Assembly: GCF_021028975.2 (NCBI RefSeq)
Contig: NC_059425.1
Location: forward strand, 112,530,001-112,594,000
Direction of reading: 5' to 3'
Origin: Sphaerodactylus townsendi
Lineage: Eukaryota
DNA: 64,000 nucleotides
Below, in pieces: positions 9,968 through 43,453 of the stretch. Below the pieces are notes generated by a model. That model was not told the origin of the DNA. It made no database searches and was given only the letters and a program-made list of their open reading frames with translations. The position numbers and the translations under genes were made by a program. Within the stretch, counting starts at the first letter, position 1. Every line of letters begins with the position of its first letter.

Positions 9968-11460
9968 TAAAATAGTCAAATTTTAACAAAAATACACTGA
10001 GGACAAATTAATAAGAAACACTGGAGAATATTTAGAGAAATGTGTAACATTCTTTAGCCCTTAGATGTTTTTTCAATGTTGCAACATAGAGCCATATATG
10101 TGCTTAACTGATATTTTATAAGGCTAAAGATTTTAAGCTGTGCTACAGCTATGTAGGAATGGCATTGGTAATAGATATACCCAGGTCACACTAAGTTCTG
10201 ACCAGCTGGATCTTTTCTGAAGACAACCGCATTCTGCCATTTTATGCATAGAAGTGAAACTACTCCACAGTCCTTTTTTCTAGCAAATTCCTCTTAAAGG
10301 CTTCCCCCTGACATAGTTTCTGAACAGTCCTTTGACTTTTAAATTGCCTGCACAGCTAGAGCAGAAAGAAGCGCTGGTTTTATTTCTTTGCCACCAATCC
10401 AAAGAAAGTTATTCTTGCCCAGGGACCATAGAGATCAACAGTAACAACAGCTGTAGCTCACTTAAGTCTGTTGTGATTTCACTGGGGCTTTAACCTCATT
10501 GATTCTGCATTCTAGATTAGGCTCTTATGCAAATTATTAGTGCTTTGGTAGTCCAACAATTATTGTAGTTGATTAAAAAGTTTTCCCACACCGGCATATT
10601 TTTTATGAGGAAAAAAGATAATCACATACTATATAGCAGGGATCTACAACAGGTGGAAACCAGTAGCTCACCAGCTGCTCAAGAGTAGCTTGTGCATCCT
10701 CCAGAAGACCCAGGAAAAGATTGTAAAAATATCTACTCTAGTATCTAAACAAACACATTTATTTTTCATAGGATTTTTTTCTGTTCTGTTTAGCTGATAG
10801 GCTATTTTTTAAATGCTCTTCCAAGTCCATGTTCTGTTTCTACAGAAGACAGAAAACATGACTGGGGTAGCAAGCAGTTTGAATTGCTTTTTATTGCTCA
10901 GAAGTAGCTGTGATTTAAAAAAAAAGTTGATAATCCCTGTTGTACATGTAAGGCAGCTGCCCTTAGAGATGCAGGTGAACACCTAGTATAGTCAGAATAA
11001 GGTTTCTAAGACATGTGGAGCAATGTCATGTAAAACTATGTCATAATATTTCTTAATTGTTCATGAGGTGTCTTGACATGTGTTTAAAAGGGATGGGTTT
11101 AAGGACAGTTGTTTGGAATGTCATTATAATTCTTATGGAATCATGTGGTATCAGAGGGCTTTGTATGTAAGGGCGTTAAATGCAGTAATGTTGCTTCCAA
11201 CTCATGACAACCCTACGAATCAAAGTCCTCCAAAATGTGCTGTCATTCACAGCCTTGGGCAGGTTTTGCAAACTGGGCGCTGTGGCTTTTTAAAAATAGA
11301 ATCAGAGGGCTTTAGGGAGCCCGTAAAAGAATGTGTCTTGATTTCAAATTTTACTTTGAGCTGAAATAGTTCTGACAGGCTTGCAGGTCTGATGTATCTA
11401 GTGGATTAAAAAAAATAAAATGCTGGTTTATTAATTAAAATGGTTTTCTTATGTGTGCAG

Positions 11461-12805
11461 AAAAAAGTTTCTTCCTTCCATGGAAGAATCTGCAGAAGGT
11501 GAAACTGCACCAGTTATGCCAGAGATGAATCATGTATGCAACAGTGACCCACAAACTGCTTTAATTGCGTTTGAAACGGAAAAACAAAATAACAGGAAGA
11601 ACTTGATGGGCATCAACAGGTGTCGGAAGGACAGTGCTCGTGAGGGTGCTGAGAAAACAGACTTTTTGCCATGGCAAAGGAACGAAGCTCCTCCTGTGCC
11701 CCCGAGAAGCACTTCTCGGCATCTGACAAGCTCTCTCTCTGCAGCTGTCCAACTTTCTGAGGCATTAGCAAAAGATCCAGAGCACAGAAACCATTGTCAA
11801 ACCCGGCGGAATCATGATAGCAATACTTTTAATAATCCAACTGTTTCAAAGCTATGTGATGCTCCAGAGCCACCAGCAAATGAATGGAAATCTGTTTGTG
11901 GTCTGGCACTGGTTACTTCGGTGCCCATGGAAAAAAGAGATCTGTCCACTGAATGCAAGCTGTCGGTGGGATTTTGTCATAACACCTGGACCTGCAAACC
12001 AAGCAAAACTGGAAATTTCACTAAGAATGACTCTGCCCCACACTCTGTCCAAAAGAGTTGTTCTGATGGAAATATGATGGACTCAAAGCAACATCCTGAA
12101 TACCAAGGCAGTGGGTGTTACTCCACTGACTTTTACACACCTGTGTGTGACACACTGGGTGACTCTGGATATGGAACTGCAAAGACTCAACGGAATGAAA
12201 CACTGGAAGCAAAGATTGATGAGTTTAACAGAACTGTGTTTCATACGGATCAAGGCCAAAAGTGTCCACCCAAGAGCCAAATGCTACCAAGACCATCTGG
12301 TAATCCTACCTCCCATGATGTACTGCAGGACTGTTTGAAGAACAGGACAGAAGCAAACAAAGATGTTACAGATGCTTTGGATCCCAGACTGTCTTTGAGA
12401 ATGAAAGAGAAACCCAACCATTTCAGCAAAAACACCAAAGGAACAGGACAACAAAAACAAGTTAATGGACTTCTGAGTAGCTATCAAAATATGCTTCAGG
12501 AGCATGATTGGAAGCCAAGTAATTTGTCTGGTCGCCCACGATCAGCTGATTCAAGATCAAACTATGGTGTTGTTGAAAAGCTTTTGAAGAACTATGAAAA
12601 ATCAACCTCTTTGTGCAATTCAAAGTTTCACAAAGATAAGTGGGTACAGTCAAACTCCACATTTGCTGGTGGCCGCTGTGAGATGGTGGGCCATTATTTT
12701 GAAATGCTCCAGACAGACCTAGGAAAGCAGGAGCTGCAGAAGAATTCAACCAGGCATGTTGGGCTTTATGCCAAACAAGACAGAGAGAAGCAGAAATTTC
12801 CTGAG
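11461..12805 (+). CDS. KIAA0408: KIAA0408 coding exon 4 (large exon; APPVPPRSTS, LEAKIDEFNRTVF, RPRSADSRSNYGVVEKLL)
   Basis: Acceptor tgtgcag, phase 2 completes the Arg codon from exon 3; donor GAG|GTAAGA; lies inside the 454-aa ORF. Confidence 0.93.
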
Positions 12806-12851
12806 GTAAGAATTTAAAATTAACGACTTTATTTTTTTTTAATAAATCAGA

Positions 12852-22420: not shown

Positions 22421-24169
22421 GTTTCGCCCCTTTGCAATTTTACACAGCATAGTGATAGAAGGGCCAAAGTTTATTACTCAGGAAAAATGCTGTTCATGCA
22501 GAAGAATCCAAGGCTCAGTCCCTGAAATCATACTGCAGGATGGAGAAGCCTTTTCGCTGGAGCTCTAAAGGGTAGGGTAGCCAAATTCAGCTTGGGAAAT
22601 TACTGTAAATTTGGAGATGGAGCCAAGGGACAGTGGGGTTTGGTAAGAAGTTTAGTGGGGATGAATTCATGCTATAGCAACCATTTCCTCCAGAGAAACC
22701 AGTCTGAAACCAGTCTGAAAATCAATTTTAATTCCAGGAGACCTCTAGGTCCCACCTGAATACTGGCAATCCTGCTGACAGTCAAAATGGCTGCTGTACT
22801 GGAATCAATGGATCAATAGTTGGTTTTTGTATAAAACACATTCATAAATCCAGTTATTCTATTATTGCTTCCTAATGAAAGTATGTTAACTGGTAGAATA
22901 CCTGAAAGTGAAATGTACATGTGCTTGTGTGATACATGCTAAATGTTATCGGAAAATTATAGCATCTAAAAACATCTGTACAACATCTGGGAGACAGCCC
23001 TCTTCTTTCAGATGCATTTTGCTACTCTCACCCTCAAGACAATGCCATACCATTTCTTCAGACACTGCTTTCCCCCTTCTTTATCACTACCATTTATGAT
23101 TCGTAAAGCACTTAAAAATTGCTTTTCAAGAACTGTTATTCTGTGGGGTAGGGTTCTAGAGGGATTTGCACATAGAACAAATGCCACAGCTAAGAAGCAG
23201 ACAATGTGTCCTTCTCAGGACTATTCAGGACTATTCCCTGTTCACTGTATTACCGGTACATTTTTCATTGAGCCTGAAAAAATATATGCATGTTCTTGAA
23301 AAGTGATAAGAGATGAGTCTGGAAATATGTAATATTTTTTGCAAAATATTCAAAGTTATAACAATAATTTCCATACATAAGAACCATACTAAAACTGATT
23401 TTTCTTTTTTCTTTTTTTGGTATCCTGACATGAGGTTAAGATATGGTTGCATTTTTTTCTGTCAAGGCTGTGACAGTTGTGTAGCACACAAAAATGCATC
23501 AGGTTATTGACAGTGACTCAAATATCTTTACCTGCTGAATGTTCTCATGTCAATCAACTGTTAAAGGATACAGATATCCTATTGCAAACATTGTCAATTG
23601 TTGACCATTAGACAGAGGTACCTGAATTAGAGGGAACATATACTGTACTCTTGTTTGCCTGAAGGGGGCAATCCATTTGACCTGTCTGGAAACCCCTTTT
23701 GCGGGTAGAGGTGTGGTGCTCTTAAGACTCCCACTCCCCCCTAGATGAAATAAACACATAACAACTTTGTGTGGATAAAATATTGACCATAGCCAGAGGT
23801 TTATTGACAGAGAGTAGAAGGAAGCAAATGGCGCAGCATGGGGAGGGGGTGATCCCTCCTCTGGGCAGCCCGAGTGCTGTCCCCCAGAGTCCACCGAATT
23901 CCTTGAGCCCACCTGCTGAATGAATTGACCGTAAGGCAATATTAGAGTGGGCGATCCCAGGTGGGCGATGTGCCCCTGTCTGGTGACCCTCTCTAAATGC
24001 TGCTAGGGGCGCAAGCCATCTTAGCCCCACCAGGCATTTAACCATCTGCTTGCTCCACCCCGACCTCTTATGGAGGCTCCCCCAGCTTCCTCTTTCCAGT
24101 GGATCACACACCCCATGCGCAACCTGCCATGTGGGACCCCCCATATGGCTCCTGCCAAATGCTTCCTAA

Positions 24170-24729
24170 TCTCCCAGCCAATCACACAGCTCTGCCCTCA
24201 AGCTATGCAGCCACAGGTCCATACCCCAATGAAATAAGTATACCCCATCCGTTCTAAACAGAGCCTCCAGCCTAAAAGAAATGTCATGGTGTGGCACTCC
24301 TTGACCCCAAAAGTCCTGTACAAAATGTGTTACCACCCGGCAAGTCTACGATCCACCCAAGTAGGGTCCGTGGCACCACTCCAAGAGCATCTCTCCAGCA
24401 GGTACGACCAAAAAAGCCTTGCTCCCGGTAACAGCTGGTGAATAAAGTCCAAGTCCACCAAGATCGTCTGAAGCAGGTGAACACTCCACACCGATGTGAT
24501 GTCATTTTCCCCAAGTTGAACCACACTAACGCATGAGGTGGGCCGTGGGCTTCCAGCTCGTCTCGAAGGAGAGGAATAAGGTCATGCCAGAGCATGCCTC
24601 TTTTCCCAAACCAGTAGATTTGTGCCCGGTGGTGGAGGCCAAGGTCCCGACCCCAGCCTAATGAAGCTACGTATCTAGCTGCCCAAAGCACAATGCTGTG
24701 TCCCATGACCCAAACACTTCGCCTGGCAC
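24170..24729 (-). pseudogene. Ngaro copy 1 SGNH/GDSL hydrolase domain
   Basis: Block I VWVMGHSIV, block II GKRGM, block III QLGEND, block V-like RTDGVY. Confidence 0.8.
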
Positions 24730-24799
24730 CTGAAAAAACTGACAGAAAAGTTAGCCGAGGTAACACGTTTTACCCCCTCAGTGCTGCATTAGTGGCCTA

Positions 24800-25660
24800 A
24801 TTTAGGTCTTGTAGGATGTAGAACACCAACATCTGACATCCATGACCCTGTTCACTGGTACCCCCATTGCAGCTAAGGAAGAAGCCGTCCCTATCCTAAA
24901 GGAATGTAGGCCAAAAGCAGAGACCGGGAGATTCAGGGCAGACAGGCAGAGCTGCAAGAGGGCGGCTAGTAGTTACCTTGATAAGCACGTACCATTGGCA
25001 TGCAGGAACAAGCCCCCCCAATTTTGGGTGGATGGCCAGGTATGCTGCCTTGTCCCCTACTGGGCAAGGACCCGGAAGTGTGGAGGCCTGAATAGAAATG
25101 TGTGTGCCCCTCACCCTCTGGTCTGTCTTGGACTGCCTCAGATGAGGCAGTGCCTGTCTTGGACTGCCTCAGACGAATGTAAATGGTGTGGCCCACAATG
25201 TTAACATCATTTATTGACAGGGGTCTGATGCTGTGGTCAGCCCAGGAGGCAGAGACCAATTTGCTACTGTGAAATGCCCCCCAAAAGGCCAAGCTGAAGG
25301 CCGCTATGAGTAAGATTGTTTCAAATTGCGAAGTGCAAATCTGGGGCAGTGTGCTAGCTAGCCGGCCAGAAGTTCCCATGAAATGGGGTGGCGTCTGTCC
25401 TGAGGACGCGGTGCGGGATCTTGCCCACCCTTTGACAGCCTGTTCACGTGGGCAAATCTATGGGATCTGCAAGGCCAGAGGCCTTGCAACAAAAGGATAC
25501 TGCTGCCAAGTGCAGGTGCATGGTCTTGGCTGCTTGACCTTGAGTGCAAAGGTGGGTGAGGTAACTGGCTTGTTTCCCTTGAGACCTGTGGAATGCTAGG
25601 AATGATCTAATGGCCCCCTGATAAGCTTGCTGCATTGCAGGGGCAACTTAGGCCAGCACT
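24800..25660 (-). pseudogene. Ngaro copy 1 tyrosine recombinase (frameshifted)
   Basis: AAFSLAFWGAFHSSKLV, RQSKT, CPV, and GLHSFRIGTAS read on minus near 24880-24912. Confidence 0.85.
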
Positions 25661-25670
25661 CCACCCAAGA

Positions 25671-26140
25671 TTACTCGCTCCCAAGATCCCACAGCTTCTG
25701 TGGGAAGGGCTCCAGCTCCGGGCAAGCCTCTGGTGCCAGCTCCTGAAATCTCTGCATCTGGAAACGTGAGAGGGCATCTGCTATCCCATTGTTGATCCCT
25801 GGAATATGATGGGCCACGGAAGAAATGTTATTAACCAGTGATACCACCACAAACCTCTGTACTAAACGCATCATCCGCTCAGAGCGAGAGGATTGACAGT
25901 TGATAATCCTGACCGCAGCCTGATAGTCGCACCAGAAGACCACCCTGCTGTTGGCAAACTGCTGTCGCTATAAGTAGAGGGCTACCAGGATAGGAAAAAA
26001 CTCTAGGAAGGTAAATTCCTTGAGGAGGCCAGTCGTTTTCCACCCCTGGGACCAGCGCTCAGCGTACCATTAACCCTTGAAGTAAACCCCAAATCCAGGC
26101 TTCCTGATGCGTCAGAGTGGATCTGAAGGGAGGTTTCCAA
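25671..26140 (-). pseudogene. Ngaro copy 1 RNase H
   Basis: HSDASGS, FWCDYQAAV, HIPGINNGIADALSRFQ. Confidence 0.88.
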
Positions 26141-26229
26141 GTCAGGCGGGTCTGCCATAGAGAGACCCCATTGAAGTGCCTGAAAAACTTCTGCCAAACC
26201 GGCAGATCCGCTTTTATGCCCTTTGTCAG

Positions 26230-27250
26230 CTATATGTAATGGTGAGGGGCAGTGACCCCTCGGGTAGCATGTGCCAACCTGGCGCAAAAGGGCCTCCGAG
26301 GTGAGACAACACAGCATGCAAAACTGAGGTGGACTAATAACACTTGGATGCCCTTTAATACACATTTCATTTTCCCATCCAGGTGGCCTAACAATTCATA
26401 GGGCTTGGAGAGCTTATTAGGAGGAAGGCTGGATGTGCTTCTCACTGTGTCCAGAGTGATCCCTAGAAAAACCAAGGAGGTGGAGGGCCCCTCCATCTTT
26501 TCACTGGCCAATGGGACTCTGAGTTCAGAAGTTAGTGCCTGAAAGGCAGCAAGCCTAAGGTGGCATTGTTGCGTACCTGCTTGGCCCACAAAAAGAAAAT
26601 CATCCAAGTAATGTGTGATGTGGGGGCTGGCTGACTGGCCCTTGGTTGCCCATTCCAGCAATGAACTAAAAGATTCGAAGGCTGCTACTGAGCAGCCCAT
26701 GGGCATGGCTTTATCCATGAACCACTGTCCCCTAAACTTGATGCCCAGTAGACAGAAGTCCTCAGGGTGAATGGGAAGTAGATGAAAAGCAGACTGGATG
26801 TCACACTTGGCAAACAGCAACCCAGGGCCGCATGACTGGATCAAATTAATGGCATGGTCGAGGGACGCGTAGCGCACCGAACTAAGCCCTTCGTCTATAA
26901 AATCATTCACGGATGACCGTTTGGGATAGGATAGGTGGTGAATTAAGCAGAATTCCCCAGGAGCCTTCTTAGGCACTACCCCCAGAGGGAAGACCCAAAG
27001 GTTAAGGGGGGGGGCAGAAAAAGGGCCAGCCATGCGGCCAGCTGCAACTTCTTTACCCAGCTTGGCTGCCACCACCTCAGGCAAAACGTGAGCCGATTTG
27101 AGATTATTGTAGTCAGTGGGCACACAGGGGGCAGTGTATGGGACTCAGAAACCCTGTAAAAAACCTCCCATAGGAATTTGGCTGCTGTCCGGTTGGGATA
27201 TGAGGCCAATAGGGGAGCCAGAATGGGCAACTTGATTGGGGTGCTGGCGA
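26230..27250 (-). pseudogene. Ngaro copy 1 reverse transcriptase
   Basis: PLGVVPKK..GEFCLIHHLSYP, KCDIQSAF, MPMGCS, HYLDDFL in the 297-aa ORF. Confidence 0.92.
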
Positions 27251-27419
27251 GGCACTCCCAATGACCAGGCTCTGTGGAGTTATGATGAGGTAGAGGTTGT
27301 GGAGGGGTCCGACCCTCCCCCTCTAAGAGCTGGGTTGACCAGAGGTCGGGCTCCTCGAAAGGGCTGTGGCTTCCAGCTCCTAGGGCAGGCAAACCTGACA
27401 TGAGGACTAGCAAGAATCG

Positions 27420-28746
27420 ACGAAAAGGAATCTTCTGTATCTCACCTCTGGCATTTACACTGATTGTACTCTCAACATTTGAGGTCCTTCCCCCCTTCCA
27501 ATTGGGGTCCTTCCCCCTGAAAATTGGCCCTTTTCTTGTACTGGAAACCAAGGGCAGGTGAAGGGCTGGACAAACATTGTCCAGGCCTCATTATTTATAA
27601 TGTCCCAGTGGGTATCACTGCGACAAGATGTAGATCTCCTAAATTCCTCATTGTAATTTATGGCAGCACTATCACCCCCAATGAGGCGGGCCCTACCCAC
27701 ATTGCATTGATGGGTAGCTAACTGCCAGGCCCTGAGCGGGTGAGCCACAGAAATCAATGCCATATGTTCTCCATAACCTACAAACCAATTGTCAAATGTC
27801 CTCTCCACCCATTTTGACTTGCTTGATGATGTGGAAGAACCTGGAAGGATAACTTTGAAAACGTCCATATAGTACCCATTAAGGGCCCTCTCCTTTACCT
27901 TTTTTGATAGGTGCCGACCCGGTGGGGCCTTAGCTGGTTCACTACCATGAAAGGTGAGGGGGGAGGAGATCCCCTTCAGGGAAACCCAGGCTACTTCCCT
28001 GCATTTGCTAAGGCCCTGACGGAGTGAAGGAATGGCTGCCCTGACCTCCCAGAATGTCCATTCCCATGAGGAGAATTGTCATCTGAGGAGTACTCACTGG
28101 ACGACGAAGATGAGGTGGAGCAGCAGCTTGAAGACCAGCATAAGACTTCCCGCGCTCTTTCCCCTGCTTTCTGACCGCAGCTGGGGTCCAGCTTCCCATG
28201 TCTCCTCCTCGATACCACCAGGACTGCTTCCTTCGACCTGTGTGAAAGTATCCTTTTCCATTCTCTGCTGACTCTTCTTACTGACTTCAGAGGCCGGTAA
28301 GAGGCAGCAAAATGGCGATGTTTTGTTGTAAAGTATTAGCCAGCTGTGTGAATATTTTGGCTAAGTTCTGAAAAATAAGGGAACTCATTTCCGACATTGC
28401 AGCCACCGGATTAGTACCACCTCTACTTGTAGTCACAGTGGGTACCCTTACCTTGTGTCACTAGATTGGGGAGCTGCCTGCTGCAGCTTCATGGACCACC
28501 CCCTTAGAGGGGCCAGCAAGGTCAGGTTGGGTTTTGCCCCACTTTGTGCTGGCGATCCATACATGCTGACCTGTGTGTGTTATCCCTGCCTGGTGACCTG
28601 CCTCCTACAGCAGCTTAGAGGCACGCCGCCATGTTCATGTCAGCCTGTGAGGGTGCTACAGACTGCACTCGAGTTTTGGGTGCCTTGGTGACTGGCACTT
28701 TGCCCAAGCTAGGAGCTTTGCGCTTGCTGCTCCTTTGAGGTGCCAT
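27420..28746 (-). pseudogene. Ngaro copy 1 gag-like ORF (interrupted)
   Basis: Starts MAPQRSSKRKAPS, homologous to copy 2 MAPAKGDKRKTPS; C-terminal ERTFDNW...YNEEFR...HWDIINNEAW; in-frame stops. Confidence 0.7.
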
Positions 28747-29999
28747 TAGTGTGTAAAAGATGACACTTGGAAAAATTCCTAGGGATAACTATAAAATTCC
28801 CTAGTGCTGCACTGTAGCCAATCCTGTACCCTGAGAACCAATGTGTGAAGAAAAACCTCTAACCAACTGCTCAGAGAAGGCCAAGGTGAAGGAAACAAAT
28901 GGGAGAGGATAAAAAGCAACATTAGAAAGTGGCACCCTTGTTTCACTCCCTCTAATCAATCCCTTGAACGAACTCAAACTCCTCCCGCGAGCTGAGCCAC
29001 GCCCTGGCCCCTTTGTCCTACGCGGTGGCTCCGCCCGGTGGCCTTGCTGAAGAAGCATGGGGTGAGGGGGAAGGCTTGAACTACCCACCCTCTGCTCCTC
29101 AGGTGGGGGAGTAGGGGATCAAACCCAGTCCTTCAGAATGGAATCCACCTTCACTTCCTAACCATCATACCACTGGCTGGCTTCAAACCTTTGCAGTGAA
29201 ACAAAACTGTGTGGGAGGATGCACCCCCCCCTCCTGCAGATACGCCGTAGAAGAAAGGGAGGTGGCGGTGTGAGGCAAGCCCCCTCTGTCTGCAATGCCA
29301 TTTGCCCACTCCGCCGCCTCTGTCTCAAACTCTGGAACCCCAGCCGAGGCAGGCACCTCTTCTGCTGCTGCCTTCACGCTTCTCCTAGTGGCCGCCTAAT
29401 GACCCCCTGACGCCCTCCATTCCTCCCCCCGATCACCTACCAAACTCTCGCAGGTCCTTACAGTCTGGCATCTTGGGCTCAAGTAGGCCCAGCCTGCCCT
29501 GTTGCGATGACGCCTTTTATAGGCTCAGCCTGCCCTGTTGCGATGATGTGTTTTGCGCGCGCCATCGCAGAGAGGGGAGTGCTTCAATCGGGATCCCGTG
29601 GTTTGCTAAACAGGATCCCATATTACCAACCTTGCTCCTTAGTAGGCGCCTAAGCCTGGCTGGGCTTTTCCACAACGTGCCACGGTTTAGCTCCTGCCAT
29701 GCTTTTTCAGTTGGATTAGATAGCTTAAAAATAATCAGAACAATGTCACTGTGCCTAACAACAGCTAAAGCATAAGACTCACCACTGATGCTCCCTTCGC
29801 TGTATATAATCCAAATTATGACTCTCCTGTGGTTATCTTTAAATTGGTCAATGGCAAAGTTAGGTAAGTTTTTCCCATGCCAAGGAATGTGCATCTCTGT
29901 AGTTCCCCTGACTTTCAGCATTTAGATAACCACAGGGATTTGAATTCTAAAGATAAATAGGAACATCATTGGCTGTACTGATTTTAGATTTATACTGCT

Positions 30000-35659: not shown

Positions 35660-36240
35660 TGAATCACCCACCGGCTGCGGTTGCCTCTTGGGGTGGGGGA
35701 GGTGGAGCATGCCAAGGTGACTGCTTCCGCCCAACCAAGGGTGGAAGCAAAGCCCGCGGCATGTTGGGCCAGGGCTGACATCACCAGAGGGGAGGGCTGA
35801 CGGAACCTTTAAAGGAGTCAGCCCTTCTTTGTGCCGGCCATGTGCTCTGGCAGGCTGGCGATTTGCCCACCCACCTCTCCCTGGACTTTTATTACGGTGC
35901 TGCATGTTTTTTCTGTCATAGCCATCGGCGGTGGCGCATGGGTATTGATCTGGAAATGCCAACTGCGGCAAGAGGCAACAGCCCTACCGAACCGGCAAAC
36001 GGGGAACACCTCTTGCCAGGAGCGTCCGCCCGGCAGAGCCCCTCAGCAGAGCGAAGCCCAATACAGGGCATCCGCCCGGGGGAGCTTCACTAGGAAGCAG
36101 ACAGGCCAGATCAAGACCCATGCTACGCCTCACGCTTCTGTTTTGTTTGGTTAATAAATGGCTATGGCCAAATGTTTATCCCAGCAAAGAGTCTCGTGTG
36201 GTTTTTGGGAGAGGATCCACCCAGGTGGTTCCCACCCTCA
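35660..36240 (+). mobile_element. Solo Ngaro-type terminal repeat unit (A-spacer-B), different subfamily
   Basis: TATA-like cctttaaagg...gccggcc; B-start ggcggtggcgcatggg..tgatc and end ggttaataaa..ggctatggcc..gtctcgtgtgg match the 3' regions of both full copies in opposite orientation. Confidence 0.7.
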
Positions 36241-36859
36241 GAAGGCAAGTATTATCATTGAGATAAGTCAATGAACATGGTTATTGTTTTCTGTTCATCA
36301 CAGAACTGAATTCTTCATGTTAGCCATTTAAAAGGCAGCTATTGCGTGTAGAGGTGTGGCCCTTCATGCTCAGTGACCCGATACACCGAATAATACACAA
36401 GACAGTATATATAGTGTGGGTAAGCAAATGGCCATAGCCAAAGAATTTATTAACCGAAAATACAGGAAGGCAAATTGGCGCAGCATGGGAGGTGATACAA
36501 GCATCTGGGCAGCCCGAGTGCTGTTCCCCAGAGGATGACTAGTTCCTACAGCCCGCCTGCTGGAGGAATCTAGCCAAGCGGAAGATTGGAGTGGGACATT
36601 CCAGACCGGGCGGCGCTCCATGACCGGGCCCCATCTCCCATCCTTCACTAGGGGCGCTTAAGCTCCTTAGGTCACCGCTGGGCATTCCAACCGTGGGCTT
36701 CAGAAACACCTAACTTCTTACCTCCTAAGGAGGTGTAATAAACAGGGGAGCTCTCCCAGCTTCCCTGCCAGCGGATCACCTCCCATGCGCAACCCGCCAC
36801 AGAGCCGGGCCGAAGGGAATCCCTTCCCCCGCCTCCCCGCCAAAAAAGCCTCCCATATG

Positions 36860-37478
36860 CCTTCACAGCCAATCACACAATGCTGTTCTAAGGCTATGCA
36901 ACCACAAACTCCGTGCCCTCTGAGGCTTATAAATGCAACCCCCCATCCTGCCTGTACAGTGCTTCCACCTTAGGGCGCAATGTCCCGATGTGAAACCTCC
37001 TGCCCCCCCAAAAACCCTGAATCAAAACGCGACATCGTCCGGCAGATCCTTGGTCTGGCCTCCATTCAATTGCAGTGAAGGGTTCAAGGCACCTCTCCAT
37101 ACTGCCTTCCCCAACAAGTGAGAGACCAGAAGATCGAAGTTTCCGGCAGCAGGTGGTGAATGGAGTCCAAGTCCGCTAACATCGACTGTAACAGCTGCAC
37201 GCTTCTTCACTGCAGGGGATGTCAGCTTCTCTCCGAAGCCGCAACACCCAGTGCGCGCGGGGGGCTTGAAAACTTCCAGCAGCTTGGTCTGGAAGGATGG
37301 GGAGAAGGTCCTGCCAATGCATGCCTCTTCTTCCGGATCCACCGTGAAGCCTGGACTGGTGGTGTAAGGCTCCAGGTCCCGACTCCCATCCTGAAGAGGC
37401 TGGGCGTGGTTTGCCGCTCCAGGAAGACGCATGCTGTGGGCCAACCACCCAAAATGACTCTCTGGTGTCCTAAAGAAG
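36860..37478 (-). pseudogene. Ngaro copy 2 SGNH hydrolase domain
   Basis: WVVGHS recoverable after removing two 1-nt homopolymer insertions; GRRGMHWQDLLP; colinear with copy 1. Confidence 0.75.
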
Positions 37479-37559
37479 CTGGAGACAAAATTGCAGGTTA
37501 GGTGGGGCCACACATGGCGCAGGAACCCTATTGATGCGCAAACGCTCTGATGTGCACGC

Positions 37560-38450
37560 GCTTTTGTAGGCCGATGACCTTTTCTAACAGCTTCCACGCC
37601 CATGACTCTGCCGGGTTGGGGCCTCAGCCCCGGCTATAGAGTGGACGCTGCTCCGATCCGAAAGGAATGGAGCCCATAGGATGTCGCGGGGAGGTGCAGG
37701 GCCGATAGGCAGAGCCTCAGCACCGCTGCCAGTTGGTAGCGTGAGAGGCGAGTCCCATCAATATGGACAAATAAAGGGGCTCCCCCCTTCGGGCGGACTG
37801 CCAGGTAAGATGCCATGTCCCTCACCGGGCAAGGGCCAGGGGCTATGGAGGCCTGCATGGAGATGCAGGTGCCCCTGGCCTGCTGATCCGTCTTGGAATG
37901 CCGCAGGTGGACGTATATAGTGCGCTCATGGATCCGGACATCCTTGAGTGACAGAGGTCTGTCGCTAGTACCCTCCCTAGACGCTGAGACTATTTCCCCG
38001 CTTCGGAAAGCCCCCAAAAATGCCAAACTAAAGGCTGCTTTAAAGAGGCAAGTCTCAAAAGAGGACGTGCACACTCGGGGTAATGTGGCGGCTATCTGAG
38101 TGAGCAAGTTCAGAGAAATCGGGAGGCGCCCGTCCCTGACCTTAGGGCGCCATCCGGCTCCACCCCCTTTATGGCCTGCCTAACCAGGAAGGATCCCGTG
38201 GGGTCCGCAATCCCCGAAGCCTGTTGCAGTAGAAGGATACCGCTGCCAAAACCGGTGTGTCCGCGATGGTTTTGGGAGACCGCCCGCGCTGTTTGTAAAC
38301 AACCAAGGTACATATGGAGAGTATAAAGACCAATTCGGTAACCCAGGAGCCCCCCGCCCCTTTGAGACTGTTAAGCGCGGGAATCTGGGAAGAAAGCATG
38401 GATTGCGGAAAATTCCCTGATAGGCCTGCCGCTTGCTGGAGCCAGCGAAG
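37560..38450 (-). pseudogene. Ngaro copy 2 tyrosine recombinase
   Basis: 157-aa ORF 37634-38107 with catalytic R (GAFRSGE), K (SKTD) and HxxR (HSFRIG). Confidence 0.92.
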
Positions 38451-38479
38451 TTCAGTGGGAATCTCCGGTGATGATCGTA

Positions 38480-40230
38480 TCCTCTCCCAAGGGCCCAGGA
38501 GCTCCTATGGAAAGGGTGCCGATCCGAGGATGCTCCAGGGGCTAGTGCAGGCTGAATCGCCCATCTGGAACCTGGAGATGAGCGCTCTGCTATGTCGCTT
38601 CCACGCCTGGAATGTGCTGAGCCACAAAGCGGAAATGTTATTGATCAAAGACACCTACCACCAACTTCCTGGACAAGCCGATAACCCGCTCAGAGCCAGA
38701 TGATTATTTTGCCGATTGATCACTTTGGACCACTGCTTGGTTGTCACTAATTACCAGAAGATTCGATCACTTCTGCGGTTGGCAAAAGCTGGGCTGGCCA
38801 CAGGTATAAAGCCCACCACTATCGGAAAAAATTCTGCAGGAATGGTAAGGTTCCTTTTCCCAGGCCCCTCGGCCTAACACCCAGCTCTGACGGCCACCGT
38901 TGGGCGCACCTACGTTGCTTCCTCTGAAGTTCCCAGACCCCTGTATTCGAAAGCCCCATTGTGCCTCTAAGCATCGGAATGCACTTGTAAAGTGGACCTC
39001 CAGGGTGAACCCGCTGCCTCCCGCCAGTTGGTAGGGAAACCCCGCTAAAATGTGGGCAAGGAACTCCTGCCAGACGGCCATGTCGCCCTTAATGCCCCCC
39101 TGGTCAGCCGTGATGTGGTGGTGGGGTGGTCACCCTCTTAGTATGCGTGTGCCAGGCGGGCGCAAAATGGTTCAAGCACAGGCGCCACCACCCGGCTACA
39201 CCATGCAAAATTCAGGTGGGCCTTAACAACTTCTGGATATCTCCTCAGAGTGCATTTGGATTTCCCTTTGCAGCTGAAGTAATAAGTCCTTAATGGCCAC
39301 TCTTCAACTTATCTGGTGGGAGGCTGGATGTGCCCTGTAGCGTGTTCAATGTGCATCCCCAGGAAATTAAGGTAAAGTGCGAGGGGCCCTCGGGTTTTTC
39401 CTCCGCCAGCCAGTGGTGGTACACTCCAGTTCCGCTGCCAATGCCTGAAAGTCGTGAAGCCTTCCTTGGTGGCATTATTGCAGGGTGCCCGGGCCTCCCC
39501 AACTATAAGCGAAGTCGCTCTTAAGCTAATGTGCGTGTGATGAATGGACTGGCAAACCGCCCCTTTGCTGCCCATTCCAAAAAAAGGAACTGAAGGCCTC
39601 AAAAGCTGCACAGGCTGCATGTGAGCAGCCCATGGGCATGGCTTCTTTATCAACGCAACCACTGCCCCTGGAATTCTAACAATGCCCAGCAGGCAAAAAA
39701 AAAGTCATTTGGGTGAATGGGGAGTAACCGGAAGGCTGGACTGTATACGTCGACTTCTGCTACAGGAGGGCCCCCCGCCCGCAGGCCCCTGATCAGATTG
39801 GTGGGCATGGTCAAACGATGCAGAGTGACCGGATTTTGCAGTAAGATCCTGCTCTATGTGGTCGTTTACTGAGGAGCCCCTCGTAGGGATAGAATGGTGG
39901 ATTAAGCGGAAACTCTCCTTGGGCCTTTTAGGCACCACACCCAAGGGGGAAAACCCTCAGGTTTGGGAGCCGGGGGAAGGGAAGGGCCAGCCATACGGCC
40001 AGCAGCCACTTCTTTCAAGCAAGTTTTGCTTCTACCACTAGGGGCATATCCCGGGCAGGACTTAAGGCTGCCGCGAGTCAGTTGCCACCCTAGGGCCAGT
40101 GTGTAAGGGATGTGGAAAGCCCTGAGAAAAACCCTTCCCAGAGGAATTTGGCCACCGGCCGGTTGGGGTAGCCCGAAGAAGCAGGACTGTGCGCAGCGGG
40201 AGTTTGACTGGGGACACGCCAGGGTTCCCC
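38480..40230 (-). pseudogene. Ngaro copy 2 RT and RNase H (frameshifted in assembly)
   Basis: Fragments LKEVAAGRMAGP, GVVPKR..FRLIHH, KPCPWAAH (shifted AMPMGCS), TLQGTSSLPPDKL, DMAVWQEFL; colinear with copy 1. Confidence 0.85.
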
Positions 40231-40329
40231 AGGACCCAAGTACTCCCAATCTAGGATGTGGCTGGGTTGGGCGGAGTGGCCCGCCCCTCCTCTGGGGAGT
40301 TTGGGCTACTTGAGGGCCGGCTCCACTAA

Positions 40330-41849
40330 AGCGGCTTTTGCCTCTTGTGCAAGTTGTCTTAGTAGTGGGGGCCTAGGCAAACCTCGCAGGAGTGCTTCCC
40401 AAATTCTTACATTTTGCCCTGTTGCACCTGCCTGGGTTAAACTCCCAGCAAATCCTGGCGTATGAACCCTCCTCCGGAAATTAATGGGCCGCTTCTTAAA
40501 AGCGAGTGGCCTTGGGGGCGGCAAATGGCTCAGAACTTAACATCGCCCCATATGCTTCCTGGATTTAACTTTGTCCCATCGAAAGCATCACTGTATCATC
40601 CTGATGCATCTTGGCGAAAACTCCTCGTCAGAATCCTCAGAGCCGCCGCGAGAGTCCCCCCCTATAAGGCGAAAGCCCGTGAGCATCGCTACACTGGTGG
40701 GTCGTGAAAGGTGCCAGGCCCTTAGCGGTAAGTTAAGCTTCAAAGTCCAATGCCAGTGTATTCCCCAAAACCCAGTGTAAATTCAGTTCATTATCAGAAG
40801 GTCCTCTCCACCCGCTTAACCTTGGGGCCGGTGGAGGAGGATCCCGTGACACTCTGAAGAGGGCGCGCTTGGGCGGATAAATTTAAAAATATCCTCCACA
40901 TAATACTCAAGGAGGGCCCTATCCTTCAGCTTTCTTACGGGTGAGGTGTGTTTTTTCCTGGGGATGCTTTGGTGGGGCTTGGCACTCACTAAAGGGGACT
41001 GGTGGGGGTGGGGCTCCCTCATGGGAAGCCCAGGCTAAGCGGTCCCTGCATCAGCTTGGTAGGCCTGGGGAAGTGATGGGATGGCTTCGCCGTGATCCTC
41101 CCAAAATGTTCCTTCCTCGAGGAGAGAGTCCTCATCCTAGAGAGTACTCACTCAGGAGGAAGACGATGGAGAACGCCACCGAGATGCATGCCTCGGGCGG
41201 TAGATCCCTTTCCTTGGCTTCCTGCGCTGGCGGTCCCGGCTGGACCCTTCGCCCTCTTCCGCCGATGATGGGCTCGCGGCCTCCTCCTCTTCTTCCTGTG
41301 AAAAGGCCTCCTCCCCCTGGTCCCCTGCTGGCTGAGACGGGCCTGCCGATGTAGTTGCAAAAGAGGCCACCGCCCCATTGGCTGAAGAGCCCCTGGCCAA
41401 CCTCGCAAATGTGTTCGCCAGGTCATTGAAAATTTGGGCACTGAGATCTGAAACCCCAGGTTGGATCCCAGGGGGGGGGGGGCTGGTGCTGCTCCCTGCA
41501 CCGCCTGTCTATTCACCGGGGTTGTTGCCATCCGCCTCCGGGCTTCTGAAGTTCTAGTGGCTGCCCCTTGAGAGCGCTTGGGCCGGGCAACATGAGATGA
41601 AGAACTGGGTTGCCCAGCCCTGGCCCCTGCTGGGGAATCTAGGTCGCGCCATGCAGGCGCCTTCCCCGCCGTTGCACGCCGGGGCCTGCTAGTTACAGGG
41701 GGCTCCCTAGGAGCTCCCTGGGAGGGGCCCGGGTGTGCTCTGCTGGAACCCGACCCACGAGAGGCTGTAACTCTCACTTTGGGGGCTTGTTTAGCTCGGC
41801 CCTGGTCCTCGCTCGGGGTTTTTCTTTTATCTCCCTTAGCGGGTGCCAT
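40330..41849 (-). pseudogene. Ngaro copy 2 gag-like ORF (frameshifted in assembly)
   Basis: ATG at 41849 MAPAKGDKRK; later LKDRALLEYYVEDIFKFIRP. Confidence 0.7.
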
Positions 41850-42839
41850 GATGAATCGAACAGCGGAGTAATGAGAGTAATGAGTTGTAAAACTGTAGAA
41901 CTGTAATGGGAATAGTGTGGTGACCCCCTACCACTGGGAGAAACAACCCAAGCGTCGAATAGCTACTCAGCCAGCTGGACAGGAATGGAAATGGAGATCC
42001 CCAAAACAAGGCAAAAACGTTAGTAAGTAGCTGAGATTACTGTAAAGAGTGTGCGGCCAACCCCTGTTGCCCTTGGCCCGCCAACTCTAACTCGTGGACT
42101 GTGGGGTTTTCCTCTTCCCCCAGCCGACCTGATCAAAACAACAAACCGGAGGAGGGGGTTGGGCCAGAGAGAGTTCTGAGAGGACTGTGACCGGCCTGAA
42201 GCCACCCCACCTGCTCAATGGGGGTGGGGGGTGGGGCAATGATTAAACCCCCCCCATACCAAGTCTGCCACCCACCTGAGGAGTGGGGAATCAACCCTTT
42301 GCACAGGGATAAAAGACACCGCTCCCCCGCGGCAACGTTAAATGGGGGGGAGGGGGTTGGTGAGCAAAATGGGGGGGTGCCATGTGCAGTCCCAGCCGCC
42401 ATGCTTGCTGGGTTCCCCCCCCCCACGCAGGCCTGGTGCCATGGCCGCCTGTTCTCGGCAGGCTCCATGACCGCTGCGGAGGTCCTGCGGTGAGAAGGGG
42501 GGGCAGAAGGCCCGTCGCCCCCCCACGGCACCGCGGCCGTTCCGGTTCCCACCCGCCGCGGAGGTCCCGCTGCGGAGATCCCGCATTAAGAAATGGGGGG
42601 GGGAGCAAGGAGGCCCGTCGCCCCTCCAAGGGCATCGCGGTGTTGCTGATAAGAGGAAGGGGGGGCAGAACGCCCGCCGCCCCCGCTAAGGCGTCGCAGC
42701 CGGTCCCGGACCTAAGGGCTTCGCTCCCTCCCCCCACCATACCCAAACAGATCCTCGCTCTCTTCAAAATCCCTCGGCGTTCCTGCTGCGAAAATCCCTC
42801 GGCGTTCCTGCTGCGGAGTGGGGCCGGCGACCACGAGGC

Positions 42840-43076
42840 AGGGCCTTTTATAGGCCCAGCCTCTCGCCCCCTCCGCAGGCGTGCTCTCGCGTATCGCGAG
42901 AGCACGCCTCCAATCAGCTGGGCCCCCCCTGCGCTTGTGCAGGGTGAGCCCGAGCTGCCCGGCCCTCTGCGCATGCGCGGGACGGCCGCGCATGCGCAAA
43001 CGGGCCTGGAGCCTTTGCCGGGCCCCTCGCCCTCCCGCAATGGCGGCCGCGTTTTAGTCGCGGCCGCGCTTTATCA
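42840..43076 (-). promoter_or_regulatory. CpG-island Pol II promoter in the 5' repeat of Ngaro copy 2
   Basis: On minus in order: YY1-like GCCGCCATT, two NRF1-like GCGCATGCGC, inverted CCAAT (ATTGG), TCTCGCG palindrome, TATAAAAG at about 42845-42852. Confidence 0.7.
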
Positions 43077-43453
43077 TTCTGGGGGAGATATGATTCGGTG
43101 TTGCACATGGATGGAGTTTTGTTTTGTGTGTGTGGGGGGGTTGTTTTTGTTTTTGTTTGGTCTTGACTCCTCTGTTTGGATAGGAGACACACTCAAGTAA
43201 ACCCAGGAGAAGCATGCTGATGTAATGCTAGAAGCAATTCACTTCTGTTGTGTGATATATGAGCAAAAATGAATCTAGTAACCTAACATCCTTCCCCCCC
43301 CCCTCAAGCACTTATCCGCTATTTGAAACTATTTGTTTCAGTGTTTTCCTCCTGCATTTCCACTTCCAGTCAGCCACAAGAAAGCGCAACAAGACCCCGC
43401 CATTTGATTTATTTTAATACATAACAGAGCATGAACATCTTGGATTATTATTG

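Follow-up and report, generated by a model that had tools for sequence, protein, structure and literature searches.

A candidate spliced gag-hydrolase message in Ngaro-type retrotransposons of the gecko Sphaerodactylus townsendi

Described here is an analysis of a 64,000-nucleotide (nt) stretch of DNA from Sphaerodactylus townsendi (assembly GCF_021028975.2, contig NC_059425.1, positions 112,530,001 to 112,594,000, hereafter referred to as the window), the minus strand of which carries two Ngaro-type retrotransposons designated copies 1 and 2. The gene order in both is gag, reverse transcriptase (RT), tyrosine recombinase (YR), and SGNH hydrolase. Immediately ahead of the hydrolase in each copy lies a motif that quite probably serves as the 3' splice site for an intron retained in some transcripts only; removal of this intron would yield, in an env-like manner, a spliced mRNA encoding the N-terminal portion of Gag joined to the SGNH esterase. 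The evidence consists of the motifs themselves, their homology between the copies, the closed reading frame upstream of the hydrolase, and two classes of proteins observed in related elements.

Splice motifs and the hydrolase exon

U2-type 3' splice sites contain a branch point, YUNAY, located 18-40 nt upstream of the acceptor, a pyrimidine tract, and YAG. All of these features are found in both copies, as judged by a rule of our own rather than by a trained scorer. The branch point, tract, and CAG of copy 2, which a sequence-only reading of the window had placed at 37503-37478 of the minus strand, are indeed present (CTAAC at 37501-37497 and CAG ending at 37479). The branch point adenine lies 19 nt from this CAG, and the tract is 76% pyrimidine. 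The corresponding values for copy 1 are 21 nt, measured to the CAG at 24730, and 84%. Our rule calls for CTAAC, a YAG 15-40 nt farther on, a pyrimidine content of at least 70%, and no AG beyond the initial 12 nt. Under this rule, which was written after the sites had been seen and was applied to copies that share ancestry, there are seven matches on both strands of the window, and the minus strand of each element contains exactly one, each time at the start of the hydrolase. When the two spacers were shuffled, 9 of 20,000 sequences from one and 73 of 20,000 from the other matched the rule.

Each copy displays two in-frame AGs positioned 9 nt apart, 24739/24730 and 37479/37470. The earlier suggestion of the same acceptor in both copies needs some correction. 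A MAFFT alignment together with the protein register pairs 37479 with the upstream AG of copy 1 at 24739, and 37470 with 24730. On the basis of branch-point distance, the expected AGs are 24730 in copy 1 and 37479 in copy 2, a difference of three residues. The frame past the CAG at 37479 is in phase 1 and encodes a G-x-x-R-x-[IV] segment matching the start of the copy 1 hydrolase. As had been read from the sequence, this frame breaks twice before the GHS of block I.

The two copies are 61% identical across 4.9 kb. In 23 ungapped tblastx blocks, all of them kept although a few are non-coding or spurious, 606 codons could be compared; the identities at the first, second, and third codon positions are 65%, 74%, and 47%. 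The low third-position value indicates that the lineages diverged under purifying selection. The copies are separate subfamilies, and copy 2 is not an old decayed copy. Yet the CTAAC, the tract, and both AGs have been kept, which argues for selection on a 3' splice signal, and this proposal of the sequence-only reading is supported as the best explanation of the motif.

A profile of the hydrolase family gives as its best match in the Protein Data Bank (PDB) the entry 4c1b, the ZfL2-1 ORF1p esterase (E 1.3e-9). In both copies the YR open reading frame (ORF) stops approximately 50-60 nt before the hydrolase, and a TAA in the spacer closes the hydrolase frame 7 and 13 codons upstream in the two copies. 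No methionine precedes block I in copy 2, and the only one to do so in copy 1 is found where strand 1 ends. With YR ending earlier, the frame closed, and no usable methionine, the hydrolase thus needs an upstream partner.

A candidate donor for such a partner lies within gag. There, where the gene is otherwise poorly conserved, 11 invariant nt common to both copies include A/GTGAGT, where the slash marks the splice point. Whereas the sequence-only reading had reported no matching gag donor in copy 2, the homologous GTGAGT is present at 41151. Copy 2 contains two GTRAGT hexamers, including this donor, and copy 1 contains one in 4.8 kb; given an expectation of 0.97-1.84 per element, the hexamer alone is not rare, and it is the homologous position that counts. 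In copy 1, the distance from the ATG to the last exon base is 649 nt (3n+1) with frame breaks in between, and the site is locally in phase 1. A strong-looking donor at 28451 in copy 1, AAG/GTAAGG, was rejected for want of a counterpart among the copy 2 donor matches.

In the scheme that we propose, the unspliced RNA would serve both as the genome and as the message for full Gag, RT/RNase H, and YR. In a fraction of the RNA, the phase-1 donor in the gag serine run (28097 or 41151) would be joined to the phase-1 acceptor before the hydrolase. The intron removed, consisting of the 3' part of gag, RT/RNase H, and YR, would measure 3359-3368 nt in copy 1 and 3673-3682 nt in copy 2. The product would contain the first ~220 residues of Gag, comprising a short helical hairpin, a disordered linker, and an arginine/lysine-rich stretch, followed by an intact SGNH esterase. 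Splicing itself, the choice between the two AGs, the phase of the copy 2 donor, and the role of the product are what we infer from the evidence above. The predicted structure of a related fusion protein, P0171, shows a helical hairpin at residues 35-68, a disordered linker with a basic stretch, and an SGNH domain with predicted local distance difference test (pLDDT) values of 91-98; the junction is predicted to fall four residues before strand 1 of that domain. By analogy with ZfL2-1 ORF1p, the product would probably tether a lipid-binding esterase to the ribonucleoprotein of the element, and on the same analogy it may tie that ribonucleoprotein to membranes.

A candidate leader intron is also observed in both copies, at 42742-41975 in copy 2 and 29440-28867 in copy 1 (minus strand), following a putative TATA box and a short first exon. 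Its acceptor is positioned 120-125 nt before the gag ATG in the two copies (125 nt in copy 2), and the branch-to-AG distance of 45 nt in copy 2 falls outside our strict acceptor rule. The candidate intron holds eight ATGs in copy 2 and six in copy 1, and the exon-2 leaders hold none. Its presence in both copies points to splicing as a general trait of these elements.

Related proteins and alternative explanations

An index-free search with the hydrolase returned 293 proteins; the listing covers 150, and 146 of these could be anchored. A word-indexed search with a 73-residue piece of the hydrolase gave no match. Those named relatives that were looked up are mostly squamate, and gecko proteins top the listed matches. 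With YR-linked and multi-hydrolase proteins set aside, 65 of the 146 anchored proteins among the matches listed have at least 70 residues before the hydrolase. A second search, for which the query was a lacertid fusion cut down to its first 224 residues, returned 24 lacertid-type proteins with one gag N-terminus, 11 of them hydrolase fusions and 13 without a hydrolase. Every one of the 11 fusions has a glycine seven residues before the block I tryptophan. All 13 proteins of the other class show G-T-S or G-M-S at the junction point, compatible with a G/GTA donor, and the C-termini of 12 of them match the gag of the window. One family supplies a gag protein, P0177, a fusion, P0171, and a free ORF, P0198, and the three part at the same glycine. 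The leader of P0198 is rich in leucine and phenylalanine, as expected from a translated pyrimidine tract.

The gecko models P0079, P0152, and P0018 have a glycine at -9, which is the register of 37479. Among the matches listed, the residues encoded by T-rich codons, F, L, I, V, Y, and C, make up 36% of those just upstream of the hydrolase in 42 short-leader proteins versus 19% in 65 long-leader proteins (Fisher p of 7e-9 on residue counts rebuilt from rounded fractions, with neither residues nor proteins being independent). Within a lineage, proteins with different N-termini come together at a single junction residue, and several urodele-type proteins share a CVGGP-like start behind different leaders. 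The sequence-only reading had named absence of the motif from other subfamilies as an outcome that would count against it; at the protein level the opposite is seen, with leaders rich in residues from T-rich codons and with common junction residues. Several of the related models are annotated with isoforms, which NCBI generally builds only where transcripts support them. A branch-point imprint, L-[T/I/N/M], was also sought in the free ORFs, but it was not clearly enriched (6/42 versus 4/65) and was not used.

Several observations weigh against a spliced gag-hydrolase message. The copy 2 donor is 698 nt from the ATG (3n+2), is out of phase as assembled, and stands beside an in-frame stop; it is flanked by indels, so the phase is unreadable there. 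The fusions are NCBI/UniRef gene models, and the four Logan-derived matches with the shared N-terminus are all full gag, with no fusion among them. Of 21 matches in one search, 13 have the gag junction, one is shifted, three are joined to YR, three look unspliced, and one is unclear; gene predictors also attach other donors to the hydrolase acceptor. The gag identity of the long N-termini is established for lacertids only, and other elements with contiguous ORFs may account for some of the matches, the Bombina set among them. Finally, in the account given in PMC9210276, the ORFs of Xenopus Ngaro elements are all reported as overlapping, and frameshifting is possible there.

These overlapping ORFs, together with a proposal of frameshifting for YR in a review as quoted by PMC13003380, lead to the idea that the hydrolase is produced from unspliced RNA via frameshifting, readthrough, or reinitiation after YR, with the motif inherited by chance and the fusions being propagated artefacts of gene prediction. 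That all of the fusions are gene models, some of them YR-joined, is in keeping with it. We nevertheless regard it as improbable, for the YR stop, the closed frame between YR and the hydrolase in both copies, and the lack of a usable methionine all stand in its way, and the donor is conserved at the point where the lacertid proteins part. A shade less probable is a functional acceptor served mainly by some other donor, be it in leader exon 1, within YR, or in upstream host exons, with the hydrolase left unfused to Gag. Models in which YR is joined to the hydrolase do occur (P0005, P0037, P0048, P0189, and P0191), as do host-hydrolase fusions, and copy 1 has further GT sites at 28451 and 24976. 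Neither of those sites has a counterpart among the copy 2 donor matches, however, an exon 1 ATG is present in copy 1 only, and most of the matches have the gag junction (13/21). It could also be argued that the CTAAC and pyrimidine run constitute a cis-acting element in genomic RNA or in cDNA, involved in replication, packaging, or translational control, that only resembles a splice site. The absence of split direct repeats, which leaves the replication signals of these subfamilies unexplained, and the conserved inverted repeats in the 3' region would suit such an element, but the constant phase, the matching donor, and the junction pattern in relatives would go unexplained, and we consider this very improbable, the least so favored of the three.

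No gag-to-acceptor joint was present among the joints listed (15 of 59, and 12 of 17 bridged joints) in contigs from two runs of one sample of a type not on record, and such contigs show presence, not absence. Element loci were found in none of the 61 and none of the 12 viral contig candidates. Two metagenome loci were obtained from 31 candidates: one near-identical element that has no YR match and has its own methionine, and is thus uninformative for spacers. In a metagenome contig, L001, positions 1578-2150 encode a relative of the SGNH hydrolase that has its own methionine and no YR match upstream; it belongs to a different element.

Some relatives of the hydrolase appear in other settings. 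P0002, P0003, P0007, P0008, P0019, and P0138 are very long models with two to six tandem hydrolase domains and a shared linker. Two such models that were looked up are gecko genes (Sphaerodactylus and Paroedura) with 5-7 isoforms, a possible case of domestication of the hydrolase exon. P0121, P0137, and P0101 are host-like fusions ending in the hydrolase, namely cold-shock-domain proteins from two fishes and an RNF31 isoform from a newt.

The two elements and their surroundings

Provided in Table 1 are the coordinates of the features described. The PF00078 match in the window corresponds to the copy 1 RT. The YR region matches P0062, in which PF00589 falls below the cut-off, and the C-terminus of gag matches lacertid ORF1. 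The SGNH hydrolase ORF is located 3' of YR, as in the vertebrate Ngaro subgroup. Split direct repeats (A1 ... B1 A2 B2) were not found in either copy, and no direct repeat longer than 15 nt is shared by the first and last kb of either copy or lies inside the 3' kb of copy 2. The elements are thus filed as Ngaro-type on the basis of gene content and not as strict members. PMC9210276 reports that many Xenopus copies have lost these repeats, but here the two copies terminate at homologous points. No methyltransferase domain was matched by Pfam in the ORF pieces scanned, the frames of which are broken.

Table 1 Features of the two Ngaro-type elements (positions within the window)
Feature	Position	Strand	Remarks
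Copy 2, Ngaro-type YR retrotransposon (gag, RT/RNase H, YR, SGNH hydrolase)	36343..43072	minus	from 5' and 3' ends and domains
Copy 1, second Ngaro-type element, other subfamily	23700..29550	minus	ends approximate; from alignment
Putative TATA box, copy 2	42846..42852	minus	common to copy 1 (29521-29515)
Candidate leader-intron donor, G/GTATGG, copy 2	42737..42742	minus	copy 1: G/GTAGGT at 29440
Candidate leader-intron acceptor (CTAAC, long pyrimidine tract, CAG), copy 2	41975..42023	minus	copy 1: 28925-28867
gag start codon, copy 2	41847..41849	minus	copy 1: 28746; first 28 codons align between copies
Candidate gag donor GTGAGT, copy 2	41146..41151	minus	serine run after basic stretch; 11 invariant nt with copy 1
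Candidate gag donor GTGAGT, copy 1	28092..28097	minus	phase 1; only GTRAGT in 29600-24760
RT/RNase H region, copy 2	38500..40250	minus	approximate; 20 frame breaks versus copy 1 RT ORF
Tyrosine recombinase ORF, copy 2	37528..38500	minus	start approximate; TAG stop 37530-37528
Branch-point motif CTAAC, copy 2	37497..37501	minus	branch A 37498; includes the TAA that closes the frame ahead of the hydrolase
Pyrimidine tract and first acceptor CAG, copy 2	37479..37496	minus	CAG ends at 37479; phase 1
Second in-frame acceptor TAG, copy 2	37470..37472	minus	homologous to copy 1 CAG at 24730
Acceptor region, copy 1	24730..24754	minus	CTAAC 24754-24750; CAG ending 24739; CAG ending 24730
SGNH hydrolase exon, copy 2	36866..37478	minus	11 frame breaks, 1 stop
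SGNH hydrolase exon, copy 1	24172..24729	minus	2 frame breaks
Putative polyadenylation signal AATAAA, copy 2	36446..36451	minus	copy 1: 23805-23800

The 5' boundary of copy 2 at 43072 is marked by 40 and 32 contigs with unlike flanks in the two runs. Its 3' end is approximate and was set by alignment to copy 1. The observed/expected CpG ratio is 0.48-0.70 in copy 2 versus 0.24-0.44 in copy 1 and 0.15-0.21 in the CpG-poor vertebrate host DNA of the window. The frame breaks in copy 2 are patchy: the YR core has none in ~490 nt, as compared with 20 in RT and 11 in the hydrolase, and the broken segments at 37479-36866 and 40065-39122 contrast with the intact one at 38134-37643. All breaks were scored as extra letters, for which a two-letter excess is indistinguishable from a one-letter loss. 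In the public contigs, the 12 best-supported of 273 indel rows all indicate extra letters in the window. The insertions likely arise from uncorrected long-read error in the assembly of a young repeat. Copy 2, called a diverged copy in the sequence-only reading, is better described as a separate, CpG-richer subfamily overlain by patchy insertion noise.

Summed contig depth at the element ends (36250-36942 and 42718-43150) exceeds that of the coding part several-fold to tenfold in both runs. Summed depth is not copy number, and the excess may reflect non-autonomous derivatives or shared repeats. The 3' region of copy 2 contains a perfect 14-nt inverted repeat (36788-36775 and 36496-36483), and a similar pair can be seen by eye in copy 1. 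Also by eye, the first exon of copy 2 includes a tandem duplication of ~20 nt at 42806-42767. Short inverted matches to the 3' end of copy 2 lie just outside the element at 35936-36170 and may derive from the 3' part of some related plus-strand element; low-stringency blastn gave no extension of them. Elsewhere in the window, an open frame of 460 codons that has no match in Pfam occupies 11435-12817 of the plus strand.

Comparison with known retroelements

The element type and its hydrolase are already known, and the new part would be the spliced gag-hydrolase message. No account of such a message was found in the literature searched, including the portions consulted of PMC9210276, PMC6681497, PMC9341512, PMC13003380, PMC7192593, and PMC7599744; Repbase, the key Ngaro reviews, and supplements were outside its scope, and an earlier mention is possible. 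The hydrolase has no start codon in these copies, and until now it was unclear which protein is made. The defined junction proposed here names both a protein to express and assay and a single RNA junction to seek in lizard and amphibian data. It would connect, by a shared protein design, two retroelement orders that are unrelated, and would explain a class of squamate RefSeq "uncharacterized LOC" models as transposon messages rather than host genes. More tentatively, and with somewhat less than even confidence, vertebrate Ngaro-type elements may be envisaged as running a retrovirus-like programme. In it, a leader intron would take out the upstream ATGs, and excision of a retained gag-pol-YR intron would build a Gag(N)-esterase that converges on the ORF1p design of long interspersed nuclear elements and helps to target the particle to membranes as an accessory protein. 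The strong acceptor would then make of the hydrolase a ready-made exon, captured repeatedly by hosts, the gecko multi-hydrolase genes included.

The closest known elements are DIRS-53_XT and DIRS-54_XT of Xenopus, which are Ngaro-like YR retrotransposons with an SGNH hydrolase ORF and, as described in PMC9210276, the same order of gag, RT/RNase H, YR, and SGNH hydrolase. According to that account and to PMC6681497, no function of the Ngaro hydrolase has been proven. The Xenopus ORFs overlap, and neither "splic" nor "intron" occurs in the main text of PMC9210276. The elements of the window, in contrast, have a closed YR-hydrolase spacer with an acceptor, a conserved gag donor, and no split direct repeats that could be found.

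Retroviruses and the gypsy-type errantiviruses express env from a spliced subgenomic mRNA, and copia produces a gag subgenomic RNA. The likeness to env that we propose is that a 3' gene would be reached by splicing out pol, with the unspliced RNA serving as the genome. Here, however, the cargo would be a soluble SGNH esterase rather than a membrane glycoprotein, ~220 Gag residues would be kept, and integration would be carried out by a tyrosine recombinase. In ZfL2-1 ORF1p, a coiled coil, an arginine-rich motif, and a phospholipid-binding esterase are reported (PMC3905857). The predicted product would have the same order of a helical self-association region, an arginine-rich motif, and an SGNH esterase, and 4c1b is the best PDB match of the hydrolase profile. 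ZfL2-1, as far as that report describes it, employs one contiguous ORF1 and has no Gag, whereas the layout deduced here from DNA sequence would arise by splicing, beside a full Gag.
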